NCBI RefSeq assembly: GCF_054482525.1
Contig: NZ_CM137006.1
Reading direction: 5' to 3' (one strand)
DNA length: 64,000 nt
Shown: positions 7,664 to 46,650 of the stretch, in pieces
Layout of the letters: every line of letters begins with the position of its first letter
Numbering within the stretch: position 1 is the first letter of the stretch
The notes under the pieces: model-generated
Seen by the model: only the letters and a program-made list of their open reading frames with translations
What the model was told of the DNA's origin: nothing
Database searches by the model: none
Made by a program: the position numbers and the translations under genes

Positions 7664-7676
7664 CAGCCAGATGCTG
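7664..7676. repeat. Left copy of 13 bp target-site duplication (cagccagatgctg) of IS4
   Basis: Identical 13-mer found at 9103..9115 directly abutting the other IS4 end. Confidence 0.85.
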
Positions 7677-9102
7677 TAATGCCAGTCAGTTAAGCAACTG
7701 ACTGGCTCTTTTTCGGGGCTGTGGGGTATTTCCAGGGCCTCTCCTTTACCACTCTCGGGAAGGCCCTTTCCCTTCTTGTCGGTAATTTCACAAGTTGTCC
7801 CATACTTGCAAGATCGCGCATCAGCTCCGGTATACGTCCCGGTGAAGCGCCCTGCAATGTCATCAGCATTCTCATCACCATTCCGCATGATTCTGAGAAA
7901 CTCAGTTGATTCGGCCAGTAACCTTTCAGATGTTCCGCCATTTTAATCATCTGATATCTCACCAGATTATAAGCCAGTAAGACACCCCACAGCTCTTGCT
8001 CCACAAGCTCCGGTTTTTTACTTCTCAGCGTCAGCCTGCTCAGTTGCATCGTCTGTTTTATCTCCCTGTATCCCAGTTCGATTTCCCAGCGATGACTGTA
8101 CAGATCCGCCATTTCTCCTCCGGGGAAGCGCATGGCGTCCGTCATCGACGTCAGCAGATGGCAGACTTTTCCTTTGCGCGTCACGGTCAGCAGGCGGGCT
8201 GTCACTTCATTTCCCAGTCCCGGCCACTTTTTTCGTGCCTGCGGGCTGGTTTTCAGCTTCACCAGATGATCGCCTTTACCCAGTTTTCTGATCTCTTCAT
8301 ATTGCGCTCCCTTTCTGAGAGGTATCATCCAGTGGCGGTGTTCTCCCGCCAGGCTCCAGGCATTTAACAGTCCCAGTGAGTAATAACCTTTATCCATTAA
8401 CGTCAGAGTGTTATCGCCGGTTTGTTCTATAAGTTGCTCAGCAAGCTCATTTTCGCTGTTCTTCATCGTGCCGAAGGCTGCAGCCGTCAGCAGATGGCTG
8501 GTCAGTTCCATCTGGCAGACCATTTTGACCTGCGGGTAGAGCGCCGGGTTCCCGGCATGTGTCTGGCGGGGGAAGGCTGCATCGTTCTCTAGTGTATCCG
8601 GTGTGCGCCAGAACACACCATCGATGGCCAGCAGGGTCAGGCCGCACCAGTGCGGATGCGGCGTGGCGTTATGCCAGAGCTGCGCTGTTTTCGTGAACAC
8701 GCGGCGGACAGCCTCACTTCCCAGGCGCTGGCGGGCCTGAATAACGGCACTGGGGGCAACGAAGGGGCGATTGCCCGGCAGCATGATGTCCAGGCGATTC
8801 ACAATCTGGTGAAGAGGTTCTTTACGCTCAAGCGCCATGCCAACAATACACCAGACCATCATTTCGAGGGGAAGACGGCGCTTGCGTAGCGTTACAGTAC
8901 CTGATTCGGCAAGGCAACGAGAGATGAGTTCGGGGTCGAGGTAATCCCCCAGAGAAGTCAGTGGGTTACGCAGAGAATCGTAACGGGATACCAGATCAAG
9001 AGCCTGTCCAATGTGCATAAAAAAATCCGGAAACAAGTGAGCGTTTCCGGATTCTTACACAGCCACTGGATCGGTCAACTGATCCTTAACTGATCGGCAT
9101 TA
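7677..9102 (-). mobile_element. IS4 insertion sequence, complete (1426 bp) with imperfect terminal inverted repeats (taatgcc…/…ggcatta)
   Basis: Length and terminal repeats; internal transposase ORF; flanked by 13 bp direct repeat cagccagatgctg. Confidence 0.9.
7690..9018 (-). CDS. insG: IS4 transposase (InsG-like, DDE family), about 442 aa
   Basis: ORF inside IS4; translation matches IS4 transposase; start placed at MHIGQALD… (listed ORF begins 6 codons earlier). Confidence 0.85.
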
Positions 9103-9115
9103 CAGCCAGATGCTG
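9103..9115. repeat. Right copy of 13 bp target-site duplication of IS4
   Basis: Identical to 7664..7676. Confidence 0.85.
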
Positions 9116-16891: not shown

Positions 16892-17983
16892 ATGCGTTTT
16901 CTGCGCCGACCAATATCGCTGCGCCAACGGCTGATATTGACCATCGGGGCCATTTTGTTGGTGTTTGAGCTGATCAGCGTCTTCTGGCTATGGCATGAAA
17001 GTACCGAGCAGATTCAGCTGTTTGAGCAGGCGCTACGCGACAATCGCAACAACGATCGCCACATCATGCGTGAGATCCGCGAGGCGGTCGCCAGCCTGAT
17101 CGTCCCCGGCGTCTTTATGGTCAGCCTGACGCTATTTATCTGCTATCAGGCGGTACGCCGCATCACCCGCCCGCTGGCGGAGCTGCAAAAAGAGCTGGAA
17201 GCGCGCACCGCCGACAATTTAACGCCTATTGCCATTCACAGTGCCACCCTCGAAATCGAAGCGGTGGTTTCGGCGTTAAACGATCTGGTCAGTCGCCTGA
17301 CCAACACGCTGGATAACGAAAGGTTGTTTACCGCTGACGTCGCGCATGAACTGCGAACGCCACTGGCGGGGGTGCGTTTGCATCTGGAACTGCTGGCGAA
17401 AACGCATCACATTGATGTAGCACCGTTAGTGGCACGGCTTGATCAGATGATGGAGAGTGTCTCCCAGCTACTGCAACTGGCGCGTGCCGGACAGTCATTT
17501 TCTTCCGGGAATTATCAACATGTAAAACTGCTGGAAGATGTCATTCTCCACTCGTATGACGAACTCAGTACCATGCTCGACCAGCGACAGCAAAACCTGC
17601 TATTGCCAGAGAGCGCCGCCGACATCACCGTTCAGGGTGATGCAACCCTGCTGCGGATGTTATTGCGAAACCTGGTAGAAAACGCCCATCGTTACAGCCC
17701 GCAAGGCAGCAACATTATGATTAAGCTGCAAGAAGATGGCGGAGCGGTCATGGCCGTTGAAGATGAAGGACCGGGTATTGATGAGAGTAAATGCGGGGAG
17801 TTGAGTAAAGCGTTTGTACGTATGGACAGCCGTTATGGCGGGATTGGTCTGGGGTTAAGTATTGTCAGCCGCATTACACAGTTGCATCACGGGCAGTTTT
17901 TCCTGCAAAACCGGCAAGAGACTTCTGGCACGCGGGCCTGGGTACGGCTGAAGAAAGATCAGTACGTGGCAAACCAGATATAA
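16892..17983 (+). CDS. basS: Sensor histidine kinase BasS (PmrB), 363 aa
   Basis: H-box ADVAHELRTPL and ATPase motifs; start taken at ATG 16892 (the listed ORF begins at an upstream TTG). Confidence 0.9.
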   Translation: MRFLRRPISLRQRLILTIGAILLVFELISVFWLWHESTEQIQLFEQALRDNRNNDRHIMREIREAVASLIVPGVFMVSLTLFICYQAVRRITRPLAELQKELEARTADNLTPIAIHSATLEIEAVVSALNDLVSRLTNTLDNERLFTADVAHELRTPLAGVRLHLELLAKTHHIDVAPLVARLDQMMESVSQLLQLARAGQSFSSGNYQHVKLLEDVILHSYDELSTMLDQRQQNLLLPESAADITVQGDATLLRMLLRNLVENAHRYSPQGSNIMIKLQEDGGAVMAVEDEGPGIDESKCGELSKAFVRMDSRYGGIGLGLSIVSRITQLHHGQFFLQNRQETSGTRAWVRLKKDQYVANQI

Positions 17984-18048
17984 AGAAAGCTGCTGACCAC
18001 CAGCACGCTGAACACGGTAGTTAAACTTTCATAAACACGGTTTTTCAT
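17959..18048 (-). CDS. pmrR: Small membrane peptide PmrR, 29 aa (MKNRVYESLTTVFSVLVVSSFLYIWFATY)
   Basis: Short ORF on minus strand with RBS ggagag upstream; I recognise the peptide as PmrR; its 3-prime end overlaps the basS 3-prime end on the opposite strand. Confidence 0.65.
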   Translation of the reverse strand: MKNRVYESLTTVFSVLVVSSFLYIWFATY

Positions 18049-18118
18049 TGCACTCTCCTCCGTTAACCTGGAGGAGAGTATGCGCGTCAGAGATTAAGTG
18101 AACCTTAAGAGTTCAATT

Positions 18119-23782: not shown

Positions 23783-23862
23783 AAGCCGGATAAGGCGCTC
23801 GCGCCGCATCCGGCAACGATGCCGACAGCCTGATGCGACGCTGACCGCGTCTTATCAGGCTT
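23783..23862. repeat. REP/BIME cluster (two REP palindromes)
   Basis: gccggataaggcgctcgcgccgcatccggc and gcctgatgcgacgctgaccgcgtcttatcaggc motifs. Confidence 0.75.
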
Positions 23863-35891: not shown

Positions 35892-36226
35892 TCAATTTCT
35901 CCGCTGCTCTATTGCCGTAATCGCCTCCACGCGTTGTTGATGACGACCGCCTTCGTACTGCGCGCCCAGCCACGCATCCACAATCATTTTTGCCAGTTCG
36001 AGGCCAACCACTCGTGAACCAAAAGCCAGTGCAACTTCACTGGCGTAATGCGGATAATCAGTACGCTCTGACGACCTGGTTTCTTTATCAATCCCCTCAC
36101 TCATTGACCATGAATAAAAGGCTGGCACAGCAACGCAGAATCCTGCGGTGCCAGCGACATGACCGCCCATTGCTCCGGTACGTTTTTTAATAAAAAACAC
36201 CGGTTGCATTGATTAATTGTGCTCAG
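35892..36226 (-). pseudogene. rpiB: rpiB (ribose-5-phosphate isomerase B) remnant: C-terminal about 67 codons recognisable, internal segment missing, 5-prime part unrelated
   Basis: Translation ends …AFGSRVVGLELAKMIVDAWLGAQYEGGRHQQRVEAITAIEQRRN which I recognise as the RpiB C-terminus; …SSERTDYPHYAS… is also present, but the segment between (with the catalytic Cys) is absent and the N-terminal 38 codons do not resemble RpiB. Confidence 0.5.
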
Positions 36227-36241
36227 GGTAATGACTCCAAC

Positions 36242-36745
36242 TTATTGATAGTGTTTTATGTTCAGATAATGCCCGATGACTTTGTCATGCAGCTCCACCG
36301 ATTTTGAGAACGACAGCGACTTCCGTCCCAGCCGTGCCAGGTGCTGCCTCAGATTCAGGTTATGCCGCTCAATTCGCTGCGTATATCGCTTGCTGATTAC
36401 GTGCAGCTTTCCCTTCAGGCGGGATTCATACAGCGGCCAGCCATCCGTCATCCATATCACCACGTCAAAGGGTGACAGCAGGCTCATAAGACGCCCCAGC
36501 GTCGCCATAGTGCGTTCACCGAATACGTGCGCAACAACCGTCTTCCGGAGACTGTCATACGCGTAAAACAGCCAGCGCTGGCGCGATTTAGCCCCGACAT
36601 AGCCCCACTGTTCGTCCATTTCCGCGCAGACGATGACGTCACTGCCCGGCTGTATGCGCGAGGTTACCGACTGCGGCCTGAGTTTTTTAAGTGACGTAAA
36701 ATCGTGTTGAGGCCAACGCCCATAATGCGGGCAGTTGCCCGGCAT
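36242..36745 (-). CDS. insB: IS1 InsB frame, 167 aa (expressed as InsAB-prime transposase by -1 frameshift)
   Basis: Translation matches IS1 InsB; overlaps insA 3-prime end around the ttaaaaaactc slippery motif. Confidence 0.9.
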
Positions 36746-36939
36746 CCAACGCCATTCATGGCCATATCAATGATTTTCTGGTGCGTACCGGGTTGAGAAG
36801 CGGTGTAAGTGAACTGCAGTTGCCATGTTTTACGGCAGTGAGAGCAGAGATAGCGCTGATGTCCGGCGGTGCTTTTGCCGTTACGCACCACCCCGTCAGT
36901 AGCTGAACAGGAGGGACAGCTGATAGAAACAGAAGCCAC
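36664..36939 (-). CDS. insA: IS1 InsA, 91 aa
   Basis: [43 protein letters not shown]… zinc-finger/HTH protein of IS1. Confidence 0.92.
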
Positions 36940-37238
36940 TGGAGCACCTCAAAAACACCATCATACACTAAATCAGTAAGTTGGCAGCATCACCTGTGCT
37001 CAGTATTTGCCGAAGTACAATATATATAATAAATATATAAAACACCTCATATTATTTACAGAGATAATAAATTCGCGTACTTTTCCCTCTTCAGCACAAA
37101 TGCCTAATAAAGTGGCGCGTTCAGCTCACACTTCTACTTATTAAAGTCGCAATTTCCCAATTATGATAACGCCAGCTTTAAATGACGTATTTTGCATGGA
37201 TTACATATTTACGACATAAATGATAAATGGAGATTTAT

Positions 37239-40758: not shown

Positions 40759-42809
40759 TGAGCGCGCTCAACTCCCTGCCATTACCGGTGGTCAGGCTGC
40801 TGGCGTTCTTTCATGAAGAGTTAAGCGAGCGGCGACCAGGCCGCGTGCCGCAGACTATGCAACTCTGGGTAGGCTGCCTGCTGGTGATTCTGATCTCGAT
40901 GACTTTTGAGATCCCTTTTGTGGCGTTATCGCTGGCAGTGCTGTTTTACGGTATTCAGTCGAACGCGTTTTACACCAAATTTGTCGCGATCTTGTTTGTG
41001 GTCGCCACGATGCTGGAGATCGGCAGCCTGTTTTTGATCTACAAATGGTCATATGGCGAACCGTTGATCCGATTGATCATCGCCGGACCGATCCTGATGG
41101 GCTGCATGTTTTTGATGCGCACCCATCGGCTGGGGCTGGTCTTTTTCGCCGTCGCCATTGTCGCTATTTACGGGCAAACCTTCCCCGCCATGCTCGACTA
41201 TCCGGAAGTGGTCGTGCGCTTAACCCTGTGGTGTATCGTTGTCGGCCTCTACCCGACGTTATTGATGACGTTAATCGGCGTGCTGTGGTTTCCCAGCCGC
41301 GCTATCACGCAGATGCATCAGGCGCTTAATGATCGGCTTGATGATGCCATTAGTCACCTGACGGACAGCCTCGCACCGCTACCCGAAACGCGGATTGAAA
41401 GAGAGGCGCTGGCGCTGCAAAAACTCAATGTCTTTTGCCTCGCGGACGATGCCAACTGGCGAACTCAGAGCGCATGGTGGCAAAGCTGCGTGGCAACGGT
41501 AACCTACATTTACTCGACGCTGAATCGCTACGATCCCACCTCTTTTGCTGATTCTCAGGCAATTATTGAATTTCGGCAAAAATTAGCCTCAGAAATCAAC
41601 AAACTGCAGCATGCCATTGCCGAAGGTCAGTGCTGGCAAAGCGACTGGCGGATCACTGAAAGTGAAGCGATGGCGGCACGGGAATGTAACCTGGAGAATA
41701 TCTGCCAGACATTGTTGCAACTGGGTCAGATGGACCCGAATACGCCGCCAACGCCCGCCGCCAAACCGCCATCAATGGTCGCCGATGCTTTTACCAATCC
41801 AGACTATATGCGCTACGCGGTAAAAACGCTGCTCGCCTGTTTGATCTGTTACACCTTCTACAGCGGCGTGGACTGGGAAGGCATTCACACCTGTATGCTG
41901 ACCTGCGTGATCGTCGCTAACCCGAATGTTGGTTCGTCGTATCAGAAAATGGCGCTGCGTTTTGGCGGTGCCTTCTGCGGTGCAATTCTGGCGCTGTTAT
42001 TCACGTTACTGGTCATGCCCTGGCTGGACAATATTGTCGAATTGCTATTTGTGCTGGCACCGATTTTTCTGTTGGGCGCATGGATTGCCACCAGCTCTGA
42101 ACGCTCTTCTTATATCGGCACACAGATGGTGGTCACCTTCGCGCTCGCCACGCTCGAAAACGTTTTTGGCCCGGTGTACGACCTGGTGGAAATTCGCGAT
42201 CGCGCCCTGGGTATCATCATTGGTACCGTGGTGTCCGCGGTGATTTACACCTTTGTCTGGCCTGAAAGTGAAGCGCGCACACTGCCGCAAAAACTGGCTG
42301 GCGCGCTGGGTATGTTGAGTAAAGTAATGCGGATCCCACGCCAGCAGGAAGTCACGGCTCTGCGCACTTATCTGCAAATTCGTATAGGTCTGCATGCGGC
42401 GTTTAATGCCTGTGAAGAGATGTGCCAACGCGTGGCGCTGGAGCGTCAACTGGACAGCGAAGAACGCGCTTTACTGATTGAACGTTCGCAAACGGTTATT
42501 CGTCAGGGCCGCGATATTCTTCACGCCTGGGATGCAACCTGGAACTCGGCGCAGGCGCTGGATAACGCACTACAGCCGGACAGAGCAGGTCAGTTTGCCG
42601 ACGCACTGGAGAAATACGCTGCCGGTCTGGCAACCGCACTCAGCCGTTCTCCTCAAATAACGCTTGAAGAAACACCCGCCTCGCAGGCCATCCTGCCGAC
42701 CTTATTAAAACAGGAACAACACGTCTGCCAGCTTTTCGCCCGCTTGCCAGACTGGACAGCCCCGGCATTAACGCCCGCCAAGGAACAGGTACAAGGAGCC
42801 ACGCAATGA
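40758..42809 (+). CDS. mdtO: Efflux pump inner membrane component MdtO (aromatic acid exporter/FUSC family), 683 aa
   Basis: Two hydrophobic domains separated by cytoplasmic region; operon position. Confidence 0.88.
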   Translation: MSALNSLPLPVVRLLAFFHEELSERRPGRVPQTMQLWVGCLLVILISMTFEIPFVALSLAVLFYGIQSNAFYTKFVAILFVVATMLEIGSLFLIYKWSYGEPLIRLIIAGPILMGCMFLMRTHRLGLVFFAVAIVAIYGQTFPAMLDYPEVVVRLTLWCIVVGLYPTLLMTLIGVLWFPSRAITQMHQALNDRLDDAISHLTDSLAPLPETRIEREALALQKLNVFCLADDANWRTQSAWWQSCVATVTYIYSTLNRYDPTSFADSQAIIEFRQKLASEINKLQHAIAEGQCWQSDWRITESEAMAARECNLENICQTLLQLGQMDPNTPPTPAAKPPSMVADAFTNPDYMRYAVKTLLACLICYTFYSGVDWEGIHTCMLTCVIVANPNVGSSYQKMALRFGGAFCGAILALLFTLLVMPWLDNIVELLFVLAPIFLLGAWIATSSERSSYIGTQMVVTFALATLENVFGPVYDLVEIRDRALGIIIGTVVSAVIYTFVWPESEARTLPQKLAGALGMLSKVMRIPRQQEVTALRTYLQIRIGLHAAFNACEEMCQRVALERQLDSEERALLIERSQTVIRQGRDILHAWDATWNSAQALDNALQPDRAGQFADALEKYAAGLATALSRSPQITLEETPASQAILPTLLKQEQHVCQLFARLPDWTAPALTPAKEQVQGATQ

Positions 42810-44305
42810 TCAATCGTCAACTTTCACGTCTGCTGTTGTGCAGCATTCTCGGCAGCACGACGCTGATTTCCGGCTGTGCCCTGGTACGTAAGGATTCTGC
42901 ACCTCATCAACAGCTCAAACCGGAACAAATCAAACTGGCCGATGATATTCATCTTGCCAGCTCCGGCTGGCCGCAGGCGCAGTGGTGGAAACAACTCAAT
43001 GACCCGCAGCTGGATGCGCTGATCCAACGGACGCTAAGTGGTTCACACACCCTCGCCGAAGCGAAACTGCGGGAAGAAAAAGCGCAGTCGCAGGCCGATT
43101 TGTTAGATGCCGGTTCACAGTTGCAGGTGGCCGCGTTAGGGATGCTCAACCGACAACGTGTCTCGGCGAACGGCTTTTTAAGCCCTTATGCGATGGATGC
43201 GCCAGCACTGGGTATGGACGGGCCGTACTATACGGAAGCCACAGTCGGTTTGTTTGCCGGACTGGATCTTGATTTGTGGGGTGTGCATCGCTCAGCGGTT
43301 GCCGCCGCCATTGGCGCGCATAATGCCGCGCTGGCAGAAACCGCAGCAGTAGAGCTATCGCTGACCACGGGCGTAGCGCAGCTTTATTACAGTATGCAGG
43401 CCAGCTATCAGATGCTCGATCTGTTAGAACAAACACGCGATGTGATTGATTACGCGGTGAAAGCGCACCAGAGTAAAGTGGCGCACGGTCTGGAAGCGCA
43501 CCAGAGTAAAGTGGCGCACGGTCTGGAAGCGCAAGTGCCTTTCCACGGCGCGCGGGCACAGATTCTGGCGGTCGATAAACAAATTGCTGCCGTTAAAGGG
43601 CAAATCACCGAAACGCGAGAATCTCTGCGTGCATTGATTGGCGCGGGAGCCAGCGATATGCCGGAGATCAAACCGGTGGCATTACCGCAAGTCCAGACCG
43701 GCATTCCGGCGACACTCTCTTATGAGTTGCTCGCCAGACGCCCGGATCTGCAAGCCATGCGCTGGTATGTTCAGGCGTCATTAGATCAGGTGGATTCCGC
43801 GCGGGCGCTGTTCTATCCGAGCTTTGATATCAAAGCGTTTTTCGGCCTGGATTCTATCCACCTGGATACCTTATTCAAAAAAACCAGTCGCCAGTTCAAC
43901 TTTATCCCAGGTCTGAAATTGCCGCTGTTTGACGGTGGACGGTTGAATGCCAATCTCGAAGGCACTCGCGCCGCCAGCAACATGATGATTGAACGTTACA
44001 ACCAGTCAGTGCTGAATGCGGTGCGCGACGTTGCCGTCAACGGCACGCGTCTGCAAACGCTCAACGACGAGCGAGAGATGCAGGCTGAACGCGTGGAAGC
44101 AACGCGCTTCACCCAGCGCGCTGCCGAGGCCGCCTATCAACGCGGCTTAACCAGCCGCTTACAGGCCACCGAAGCCCGGTTGCCAGTGCTTGCCGAGGAG
44201 ATGTCATTACTGATGCTGGACAGCCGCCGGGTGATCCAAAGCATTCAGTTGATGAAATCGCTGGGCGGCGGGTATCAGGCAAGTCCCGTCGTCGAGAAAA
44301 AATAA
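42806..44305 (+). CDS. mdtP: Outer membrane efflux factor MdtP (TolC-like), 499 aa, containing an 11-residue tandem duplication
   Basis: Lipoprotein signal (LISGCAL); OMF family; internal repeat HQSKVAHGLEA x2. Confidence 0.88.
   Translation: MINRQLSRLLLCSILGSTTLISGCALVRKDSAPHQQLKPEQIKLADDIHLASSGWPQAQWWKQLNDPQLDALIQRTLSGSHTLAEAKLREEKAQSQADLLDAGSQLQVAALGMLNRQRVSANGFLSPYAMDAPALGMDGPYYTEATVGLFAGLDLDLWGVHRSAVAAAIGAHNAALAETAAVELSLTTGVAQLYYSMQASYQMLDLLEQTRDVIDYAVKAHQSKVAHGLEAHQSKVAHGLEAQVPFHGARAQILAVDKQIAAVKGQITETRESLRALIGAGASDMPEIKPVALPQVQTGIPATLSYELLARRPDLQAMRWYVQASLDQVDSARALFYPSFDIKAFFGLDSIHLDTLFKKTSRQFNFIPGLKLPLFDGGRLNANLEGTRAASNMMIERYNQSVLNAVRDVAVNGTRLQTLNDEREMQAERVEATRFTQRAAEAAYQRGLTSRLQATEARLPVLAEEMSLLMLDSRRVIQSIQLMKSLGGGYQASPVVEKK
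43461..43533 (+). repeat. Perfect 33 bp tandem duplication (aagcgcaccagagtaaagtggcgcacggtctgg x2, plus 7 bp of a third unit) inside mdtP
   Basis: Read directly from sequence; in-frame. Confidence 0.95.
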
Positions 44306-44313
44306 AATGTCTG

Positions 44314-44346
44314 CCGCGTGATGGCTGTCACGCGGTATTTCGTTTC
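44314..44346 (+). terminator. Terminator hairpin ccgcgtga tggctg tcacgcgg followed by T-rich tract, after mdtP
   Basis: Perfect 8 bp inverted repeat then tatttcgtttcg. Confidence 0.5.
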
Positions 44347-44435
44347 GTCACGTCAAAACTGACGACAGCCTGTTTTTCGTCAGAGTTTTGAATAAATAGT
44401 GCCCGTAATATCAGGGAATGACCCCAAATAAAATG

Positions 44436-44451
44436 TGGCATAAAAGATGCA
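44436..44451 (+). promoter_or_regulatory. Sigma-54 promoter of fdhF (TGGCAtaaaagaTGCAt; GG and GC 12 nt apart)
   Basis: -24/-12 consensus read from sequence about 50 bp upstream of fdhF ATG; fdhF is known to be sigma-54/FhlA dependent. Confidence 0.7.
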
Positions 44452-44502
44452 TACTGTAGTCGAGAGCGCGTATGCGTGATTTGATTAACTGGAGCGAGAC
44501 CG

Positions 44503-46650
44503 ATGAAAAAAGTCGTCACGGTTTGCCCCTATTGCGCATCAGGTTGCAAAATCAACCTGGTCGTCGATAACGGCAAAATCGTCCGGGCGGAGGCAGCGCA
44601 GGGGAAAACCAACCAGGGTACCCTGTGTCTGAAGGGTTATTATGGCTGGGATTTCATTAACGATACCCAGATCCTGACCCCGCGCCTGAAAACCCCCATG
44701 ATCCGTCGCCAGCGTGGCGGCAAACTCGAACCTGTTTCCTGGGATGAGGCACTGAATTACGTTGCCGAGCGCCTGAGCGCCATCAAAGAGAAGTACGGTC
44801 CGGATGCCATCCAGACGACCGGCTCCTCGCGTGGTACGGGTAACGAAACCAACTATGTAATGCAAAAATTTGCGCGCGCCGTTATTGGTACCAATAACGT
44901 TGACTGCTGCGCTCGTGTCTGACACGGCCCATCGGTTGCAGGTCTGCACCAATCGGTCGGTAATGGCGCAATGAGCAATGCTATTAACGAAATTGATAAT
45001 ACCGATTTAGTGTTCGTTTTCGGGTACAACCCGGCGGATTCCCACCCAATCGTGGCGAACCACGTAATTAACGCTAAACGTAACGGGGCGAAAATTATCG
45101 TCTGCGATCCGCGCAAAATTGAAACCGCGCGCATTGCTGACATGCACATTGCACTGAAAAACGGCTCGAACATCGCGCTGTTGAATGCGATGGGCCATGT
45201 CATTATTGAAGAAAATCTGTACGACAAAGCATTCGTCGCTTCCCGTACAGAAGGCTTTGAAGAGTATCGTAAAATCGTTGAAGGCTACACGCCGGAGTCG
45301 GTTGAAGATATCACCGGCGTCAGCGCCAATGAGATTCGTCAGGCGGCACGGATGTATGCCCAGGCGAAAAGCGCCGCCATCCTGTGGGGCATGGGTGTAA
45401 CCCAGTTCTACCAGGGCGTGGAAACCGTGCGTTCTCTGACCAGCCTCGCGATGCTGACCGGTAACCTCGGTAAGCCACATGCGGGTGTTAACCCGGTTCG
45501 TGGTCAGAACAACGTACAGGGTGCCTGCGATATGGGCGCGCTGCCGGATACGTATCCGGGATACCAGTACGTGAAAGATCCGGCTAACCGCGAGAAATTC
45601 GCCAAAGCCTGGGGCGTGGAAAGCCTGCCTGCTCATACCGGTTATCGCATCAGCGAGCTGCCGCACCGCGCAGCGCATGGTGAAGTGCGTGCCGCGTACA
45701 TTATGGGCGAAGATCCGCTGCAAACTGACGCGGAGCTGTCGGCAGTACGTAAAGCCTTTGAAGATCTGGAACTGGTTATCGTTCAGGACATCTTTATGAC
45801 CAAAACCGCGTCGGCGGCGGATGTTATTTTACCGTCAACGTCGTGGGGCGAGCATGAAGGCGTGTTTACTGCGGCTGACCGTGGCTTCCAGCGTTTCTTC
45901 AAAGCGGTTGAACCGAAGTGGGATCTGAAAACGGACTGGCAGATTATCAGTGAAATCGCCACTCGTATGGGTTATCCGATGCACTACAACAACACCCAGG
46001 AGATCTGGGATGAGTTGCGTCATCTGTGCCCGGATTTCTACGGTGCGACTTACGAGAAAATGGGCGAACTGGGCTTCATTCAGTGGCCTTGCCGCGATAC
46101 TTCAGATGCCGATCAGGGGACTTCTTATCTGTTTAAAGAGAAGTTTGATACCCCGAACGGTCTGGCGCAGTTCTTCACCTGCGACTGGGTAGCGCCAATC
46201 GACAAACTCACCGACGAGTACCCGATGGTACTGTCAACGGTGCGTGAAGTTGGTCACTACTCTTGCCGTTCGATGACCGGTAACTGTGCGGCACTGGCGG
46301 CGCTGGCTGATGAACCTGGCTACGCACAAATCAATACCGAAGACGCCAAACGTCTGGGTATTGAAGATGAGGCATTGGTTTGGGTGCACTCGCGTAAAGG
46401 CAAAATTATCACCCGTGCGCAGGTCAGCGATCGTCCGAACAAAGGGGCGATTTATATGACCTACCAGTGGTGGATTGGTGCCTGTAACGAGCTGGTTACC
46501 GAAAACTTAAGCCCGATTACGAAAACGCCGGAATACAAATACTGCGCCGTGCGCGTCGAGCCGATCGCCGATCAGCGCGCCGCCGAGCAGTACGTGATTG
46601 ACGAGTACAACAAGTTGAAAACTCGCCTGCGCGAAGCGGCACTGGCGTAA
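44503..46650 (+). CDS. fdhF: Formate dehydrogenase H (selenocysteine-containing molybdoenzyme) FdhF, 715 aa with in-frame UGA (Sec) at 44920..44922
   Basis: Two adjacent same-frame ORFs (44503..44922 and 44971..46650) joined by a TGA; N-terminal 4Fe-4S Cys motif CPYCASGC; SECIS hairpin follows the TGA. Confidence 0.93.
44920..44970 (+). other. SECIS element: UGA plus downstream stem-loop (cacggcccatcggttgcaggtctgcaccaatcggtcgg)
   Basis: Matches the fdhF SECIS hairpin as I recall it; positioned immediately 3-prime of the in-frame TGA. Confidence 0.8.

Follow-up and report, generated by a model that had tools for sequence, protein, structure and literature searches.

On the plus strand of the window, the 64-kb stretch of DNA analyzed here, positions 44503-46650 translate as one 715-codon frame interrupted by one internal TGA, codon 140, at 44920-44922. 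The ATG at 44503, the TGA at 44920, the codon following it at 44923, a further ATG at 44971 and the terminal TAA at 46648-46650 all share a common frame (position mod 3 = 1), and the mechanical ORF list for the + strand gives two entries in this same frame, 44503..44922 (139 aa) and 44971..46650 (559 aa). A first-pass annotation of this DNA had described fdhF as split at 44920..44922 into two ORFs in frame with each other, and had warned that naive ORF calling would truncate the gene; the ORF list, the translation and the common frame bear out the former, and the 139-aa and 559-aa pieces in the list are just such a truncation. The gene and the elements surrounding it are arranged as follows:

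44312..44337, + strand: terminator-like hairpin after mdtP (stop at 44305), an inverted repeat with an 11-pair stem followed by TTTCGTTTCG, where the control region of fdhF begins

44343..44391, + strand: repeat-rich region some 45-95 nt ahead of the -24 element, candidate FhlA enhancer (UAS), recognized from its repeats

44436..44451, + strand: sigma-54 (-24/-12) promoter TGGCAT-N6-TGCA, with GG at 44437-38 and GC at 44449-50, from a pattern search, comparison with K-12 and ChIP-seq

44491..44494, + strand: Shine-Dalgarno-like GGAG, 8 nt before the ATG, read from the sequence

44503..46650, + strand: fdhF coding sequence (CDS), formate dehydrogenase H, 715 residues including Sec140 and ending in TAA, from PDB, TIGR01591, Pfam and RefSeq

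44915..44969, + strand: SECIS as delimited by the Rfam SECIS_2 model, comprising the classical hairpin and an outer 5-bp stem (44915-19 with 44965-69)

44920..44922, + strand: in-frame UGA, codon 140, assigned to selenocysteine and aligned to X140 of 1AA6/1FDO/2IV2/7Z0T

44934..44950, + strand: apical 17-nt stem-loop GGUUGCAGGUCUGCACC, the predicted SelB-binding minimal SECIS, from sequence, fold and PMC8659212

46664..46693, + strand: intrinsic terminator of fdhF with a 9-bp G+C-rich stem, the loop TTCG and a T-run, from a terminator scan

The identity of the gene was assessed at the protein and DNA levels. With Cys put at the TGA position, the conceptual protein aligned to PDB 1AA6_A over positions 1-715 without a gap (E = 0), placing the TGA opposite the non-standard residue X140, and the FdhF product shares 714/715 residues with E. 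coli FDH-H as crystallised (PDB 1AA6/1FDO). The 1AA6_A sequence itself recurs in 1FDI, 1FDO, 2IV2 and 7Z0T, the last of these being the entry for the FHL complex. The NCBIfam model TIGR01591 (Fdh-alpha) matched residues 6-685 with 1095.6 bits, compared to a cut-off of 666.25, and the Pfam domains followed in the order PF04879 (Molybdop_Fe4S4), PF00384 (Molybdopterin) and PF01568 (Molydop_binding). The Molybdopterin profile spans the TGA, with its positions 1-80 matched before and 90-352 after it, indicating that one domain straddles the stop; Molydop_binding lies after the TGA. Complementarily, the DNA between 44300 and 46700 matches E. coli PCN033, SCU-102 and 19KM1776 with 100% identity, and in these genomes RefSeq gives a single 2148-nt fdhF CDS between mdtP and yjcO. 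More globally, the fdhF region was found in 5419/5426 complete E. coli genomes, annotated as one fdhF CDS, with some records labeling the product 'formate dehydrogenase H subunit alpha, selenocysteine-containing'. Both the name initially given to the gene and the FdhF alignment suggested as a check on it were thereby confirmed. Taken with the SECIS evidence below, we are nearly certain that 44503-46650 is E. coli fdhF and that its UGA at codon 140 is read as selenocysteine via a SECIS located directly 3' of it; none of the findings spoke against this reading.

Gene order (mdtP-fdhF-yjcO), gene length and the number of the UGA codon are the same as for fdhF of E. coli K-12 (b4079). The two coding sequences differ at 20 of 2148 nucleotides, 19 of these differences being synonymous and the sole amino-acid change being S276N, a pattern indicating that purifying selection acts before as well as after the TGA. 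The 701 nt from 44290 to 44990, which take in the control region and the recoding site, differ from K-12 by just two SNPs. At 44427, 9 nt ahead of the -24 element, the window has A where K-12 has C, and at 44652 it has a synonymous T in place of C; both fall outside the -24/-12 elements and the SECIS. The fdhF of the window is thus an allelic variant of the K-12 gene, and the same allele is found in PCN033, SCU-102 and 19KM1776. As a side observation, the nearest genomes are without two IS insertions that are present in the window.

Immediately after the TGA lies the hairpin-forming sequence cacggcccatcggttgcaggtctgcaccaatcggtcgg, 38 nt long and spanning 44923-44960, which is the very sequence that the first-pass annotation had quoted as a bacterial SECIS stem-loop. 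A local search with the Rfam model SECIS_2 (RF01988) supported this identification, matching 44915-44969 with 87.1 bits (E 8.5e-19), where the gathering score is 70, and the match recurred in a gathering-threshold scan of the whole window (E 1.8e-17) with the full model positions 1-55 covered. SECIS_3 overlapped the element weakly, its 35.8 bits being under the gathering score of 63. Folding 44920-44960 yielded -14.2 kcal/mol and placed a hairpin at 44925-44959 in the minimum free energy (MFE) fold, directly 3' of the UGA, and 44915-44969 folded with -19.7 kcal/mol into an MFE structure that equals the Rfam SECIS_2 consensus structure. Within it, the apical stem-loop at 44934-44950 is set off from the UGA by an 11-nt spacer (44923-44933), carries the loop GGUC (44941-44944), in which 44942-44943 are the loop G23/U24 of the SECIS, and has a bulged U at 44937 (position 18) in the MFE fold. 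This geometry agrees with a review that describes the fdhF SECIS as a 40-nt element whose 17-nt upper stem-loop lies 11 nt from the UGA, names U17, G23 and U24 as conserved positions, and summarizes earlier mutagenesis according to which the apical stem-loop and its spacing are functional (PMC8659212).

Folding energy, in turn, was no better for the SECIS than for dinucleotide shuffles, 24-25/200 of which were as stable (z about -1.2, for the 41-nt and the 55-nt segment), and we rejected it as evidence for a SECIS in this G+C-rich stretch. The folding check from 44920 onward that had been proposed initially hence succeeded in structural terms, returning a hairpin with the SECIS_2 consensus structure, but not in energetic ones, since energy alone is not distinctive. 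The significance of the element derives from the covariance model, the base identity to K-12 and the conservation described in the following, not from fold energy.

The 76-nt segment surrounding the UGA showed 100% identity in 5403/5420 E. coli records. Even strain 14EC007, the weakest among the matches listed (97.4% identity), carries just two synonymous third-position differences, one of which turns an outer-stem U-G into a C-G pair, the other site being unpaired. For homologues, we scanned genome contigs with the back-translated peptide CCARVUHGP, which places no constraint 3' of codon 143. The matches comprised at least 120 loci outside E. coli with the TGA kept, from Enterobacterales, Pasteurellaceae and a few MAGs. 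These data bear directly on whether the TGA could be a true nonsense mutation that has reduced fdhF to a pseudogene, that is, to a 139-aa and a 559-aa piece with a restart at the ATG at 44971. UGA normally terminates translation and the mechanical ORF list does give two ORFs; however, the TGA and its flanking 76 nt are identical in nearly all of the E. coli records, the TGA is kept in loci of other species whose downstream sequence the search pattern left unconstrained, the crystallised enzyme has its full length and carries a non-standard residue 140, a curated SECIS model is matched above its threshold, and 19/20 nucleotide differences from K-12 are synonymous. We therefore regard a pseudogene as effectively refuted by the conservation, the full-length structure and the SECIS model score, leaving it a vanishingly small probability.

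Conservation extends to the shape of the element. Among the matches listed, 42 distinct 55-mers besides the E. coli one kept the hairpin in a gap-free alignment, indicating that the spacing from UGA to loop is fixed. In the 43 distinct sequences among the matches listed, 90.6% of the stem cells were paired, compared to 23-49% when the partners were slid by 1-3 columns. Eight distinct sequences among the matches listed replace G15-C31 (UGA numbering) with U-A, changing the amino acids HQ to LK and keeping the stem and the bulged U; in the Pasteurellaceae, this HQ to LK change makes 15-31 a U-A pair and lets A18 pair with U29, again with a bulged U retained. Covariation support for the SECIS is modest, amounting to one fully compensatory pair only, because the sequences are very conserved and under coding constraint; in addition, the structure tested is the one obtained for E. 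coli, and much of columns 1-16 was preset by the search pattern. In the same set of 43 sequences among the matches listed, the loop AGGUCUG and columns 26-33 were invariant, including columns 26, 29 and 32, which are four-fold-degenerate third codon positions (of GCA, GGU and CUG). By contrast, all of the third positions in columns 17, 20, 23, 41, 44, 47 and 50 varied. Invariant third positions in the loop next to varying neighbors are the signature of selection at the RNA level in addition to selection on the protein.

This pattern speaks to a second alternative, in which the hairpin is a by-product of encoding the active-site peptide HGPSVAGLHQSVG and the UGA is read by near-cognate suppression. 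Such a view would be in line with a fold energy that matches that of shuffled controls, and the peptide is so highly conserved that nucleotide conservation could largely reflect coding. Yet coding does not account for invariant four-fold-degenerate columns 26, 29 and 32 in the loop and upper stem where nearby third positions vary, nor for HQ to LK changes in Pasteurellaceae that keep the stem (U-A at 15-31, A18-U29 and the bulged U); the covariance model score of 87 bits likewise argues against it, as does mutagenesis tying function to the apical stem-loop and its spacing (PMC8659212). On the strength of the invariant synonymous sites, the covariance score and the stem-keeping changes, we rejected this explanation, which we consider highly improbable, in favor of a SECIS that directs selenocysteine insertion.

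Upstream of the gene, the sigma-54 motif that had been reported as intact was recovered at 44436-44451, identical to both K-12 and the ChIP-seq site. TGGCAT-N6-TGCA is the sole match in the window and lies 52 nt upstream of the fdhF ATG; as chance would yield 0.92 matches to this degenerate pattern, we rejected the consensus scan alone as proof (1 match versus 0.92 expected). The 17-mer GTGGCATAAAAGATGCA (44435-44451) equals the ChIP-seq-mapped fdhF sigma-54 site OS41 of K-12, being listed as the fdhF site in a genome-wide sigma-54 ChIP-seq study (PMC4591121). Together, the position upstream of the ATG, the identity to K-12 and the identity to the ChIP-seq site confirm the sigma-54 promoter. 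In the same line, a sigma-70 promoter scan of the + strand returned none ahead of fdhF, consistent with a promoter that depends on sigma-54 only. Farther upstream, direct repeats TTTCGTCA at 44343-50 and 44375-82 and the inverted CTGACGA/TCGTCAG at 44359-65 and 44377-83 lie in a region rich in TCGTCA/TGACGA repeats. FhlA and formate control fdhF (PMC11841067), and the repeats at 44343-44391, situated where such an enhancer is expected, may constitute the FhlA enhancer region. The upstream region from 44290 to 44426 is 100% identical to K-12.

We further compared the element with other selenocysteine insertion systems. As in fdnG/fdoG, whose SECIS are represented by SECIS_3 and related models, an in-frame UGA is followed by a SelB-binding hairpin inside the CDS; the element of the window is nevertheless of the fdhF type, with the SECIS_3 score remaining below gathering. 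Eukaryotic and archaeal SECIS share the same role, the recoding of UGA as selenocysteine through mRNA structure, but are located in untranslated regions, far from the UGA, whereas the element described here sits inside the ORF and begins at the UGA. They work via SBP2/eEFSec or archaeal SelB. The outer 5-bp stem (44915-19/44965-69) spans the UGA and extends past the classical 40-nt element. That this stem aids recoding, or that S276N or the A at 44427 alters FDH-H activity or fdhF expression, is conceivable but very unlikely.

Within the 64-kb window, genes of the selenocysteine machinery (sel) were absent, with no tRNA and no other relevant Rfam family detected. Among complete E. coli genomes, K-12 queries found selAB in 5425/5426, selC in 5424/5426 and selD in 5425/5426, and this prevalence across the species gives a very high prior probability that the machinery is intact in the source strain as well. 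Sec-tRNA(Sec) is the selC product, which SelA converts from Ser-tRNA with selenophosphate supplied by SelD. It is carried by SelB-GTP, the C-terminal domain of SelB binding the apical SECIS loop.

Applied to the present locus, transcription would start from the sigma-54 promoter at 44436-44451, activated by formate-bound FhlA at the upstream repeat region. In the resulting mRNA, UGA140 would not act as a stop; rather, the apical stem-loop of the SECIS at 44934-50 would bind SelB carrying Sec-tRNA(Sec), and SelB, competing with RF2, would bring Sec-tRNA(Sec) to the ribosomal A site. For part of the ribosomes at UGA140, the tethered SelB complex would outcompete RF2, selenocysteine would be inserted, and translation would run on to the TAA at 46648-50. 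The product, FDH-H, oxidises formate as a subunit of the formate hydrogenlyase complex and contains both molybdopterin and selenocysteine; its Sec140 is a ligand to the molybdenum of the bis-MGD cofactor. FDH-H passes electrons from formate to hydrogenase 3 or 4 of formate hydrogenlyase complexes (PMC11841067). SelB binding and selenium-dependent read-through are established for the identical K-12 sequence (PMC4513850, PMC8659212). SelB binding, selenocysteine insertion and FhlA activation probably take place in the source strain too.

Recoding is incomplete, being reported at 30-40% in vivo with RF2 competing (PMC4513850), so a truncated peptide must be made. One could therefore suppose that termination at UGA140 is the main relevant outcome and that the 139-residue fragment, with its Fe4S4 domain, is functional in itself. 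However, this fragment comprises no more than the Fe4S4 domain plus positions 1-80 out of 353 in the Molybdopterin profile, the known enzyme is the full-length protein, and the literature consulted mentions no function for the fragment. Given the partial Molybdopterin domain and an enzyme known as a full-length protein, we rejected a functional 139-aa fragment, the chance of which we judge to be minute.

Overall, the fdhF recoding site in this window is already known and ordinary, and its allele has previously been deposited in RefSeq. As the founding example of bacterial selenocysteine insertion, fdhF has been worked out in genetics, biochemistry and structure, and an intact copy in one more E. 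coli chromosome adds no new biology. Its value is that of a quality check: naive ORF calling would split fdhF, and the recoded stop is recognizable from the sequence.

Comparison of the fdhF product, formate dehydrogenase H (FDH-H), with that of K-12 revealed a single amino-acid change, S276N (codon 276, window position 45329), while upstream of the gene, 9 nt before the -24 element of its sigma-54 promoter, position 44427 carries an A where K-12 has a C. Both S276N and the A at 44427 were common to the E. coli genomes PCN033, SCU-102 and 19KM1776. Searching the E. coli genome collection more globally, we found no fdhF match in 7 of the 5426 complete genomes; one genome held the gene in two copies, and four matches were located on plasmid-labelled records.

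Among the loci of other species, a variant of the SECIS, the hairpin directly 3' of the fdhF UGA, encodes ...GLQRSVG and was present in Morganella, Edwardsiella, Hafnia, Proteus and Serratia (loci L031, L033, L038, L044 and L069 in the 55-mer alignment A3). Position 30, counted from the UGA, is a G in this variant, not a C, resulting in a G-G mismatch opposite G16 when placed on the E. coli structure; an alternative register pairing C14 with G32 is possible. In the same alignment, the loop was identical to that of the other loci.

Directly upstream of fdhF, mdtP (42806-44305) appeared as 499 aa in the mechanical ORF list and is annotated with 1500 nt in SCU-102, but with 1467 nt (488 aa) in PCN033 and K-12. 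This length difference between RefSeq records is a discrepancy in start-codon annotation.

Further features of the window comprise two small RNAs, both matched at the Rfam gathering level, and two insertions.

Small RNAs and insertions in the window
7677-9102, IS4 insertion of 1426 bp, interrupting melR
17952-18117, minus strand, STnc630, enterobacterial sRNA (181.8 bits)
23784-23861, plus strand, naRNA4/CssrE, nucleoid-associated RNA (85.5 bits)
36227-36994, insertion of 768 bp, intergenic between yjcS and an RpiB/LacA/LacB-family gene

The 768-bp insertion, missing from SCU-102 in the genome comparison, is flanked by a 9-bp target duplication (TGTGCTCAG; 36218-36226 and 36995-37003), ends in 23-nt terminal inverted repeats starting GGTAATGACTCCAACTTATTGAT, and holds two minus-strand ORFs of 91 and 167 aa. 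Judged by size, repeats and ORF layout, its predicted anatomy is that of IS1.

The IS4 insertion in melR, in turn, lies between copies of a 13-bp target duplication (CAGCCAGATGCTG; 7664-7676 and 9103-9115), has terminal inverted repeats of roughly 18-22 nt, and contains a single minus-strand ORF of 448 aa matching the NCBIfam IS4-family transposase model NF033592 (304.6 bits). Genome comparison showed that it is missing from the three otherwise 100%-identical genomes. As melR is broken by this insertion, melibiose utilisation is probably not inducible in the source strain.
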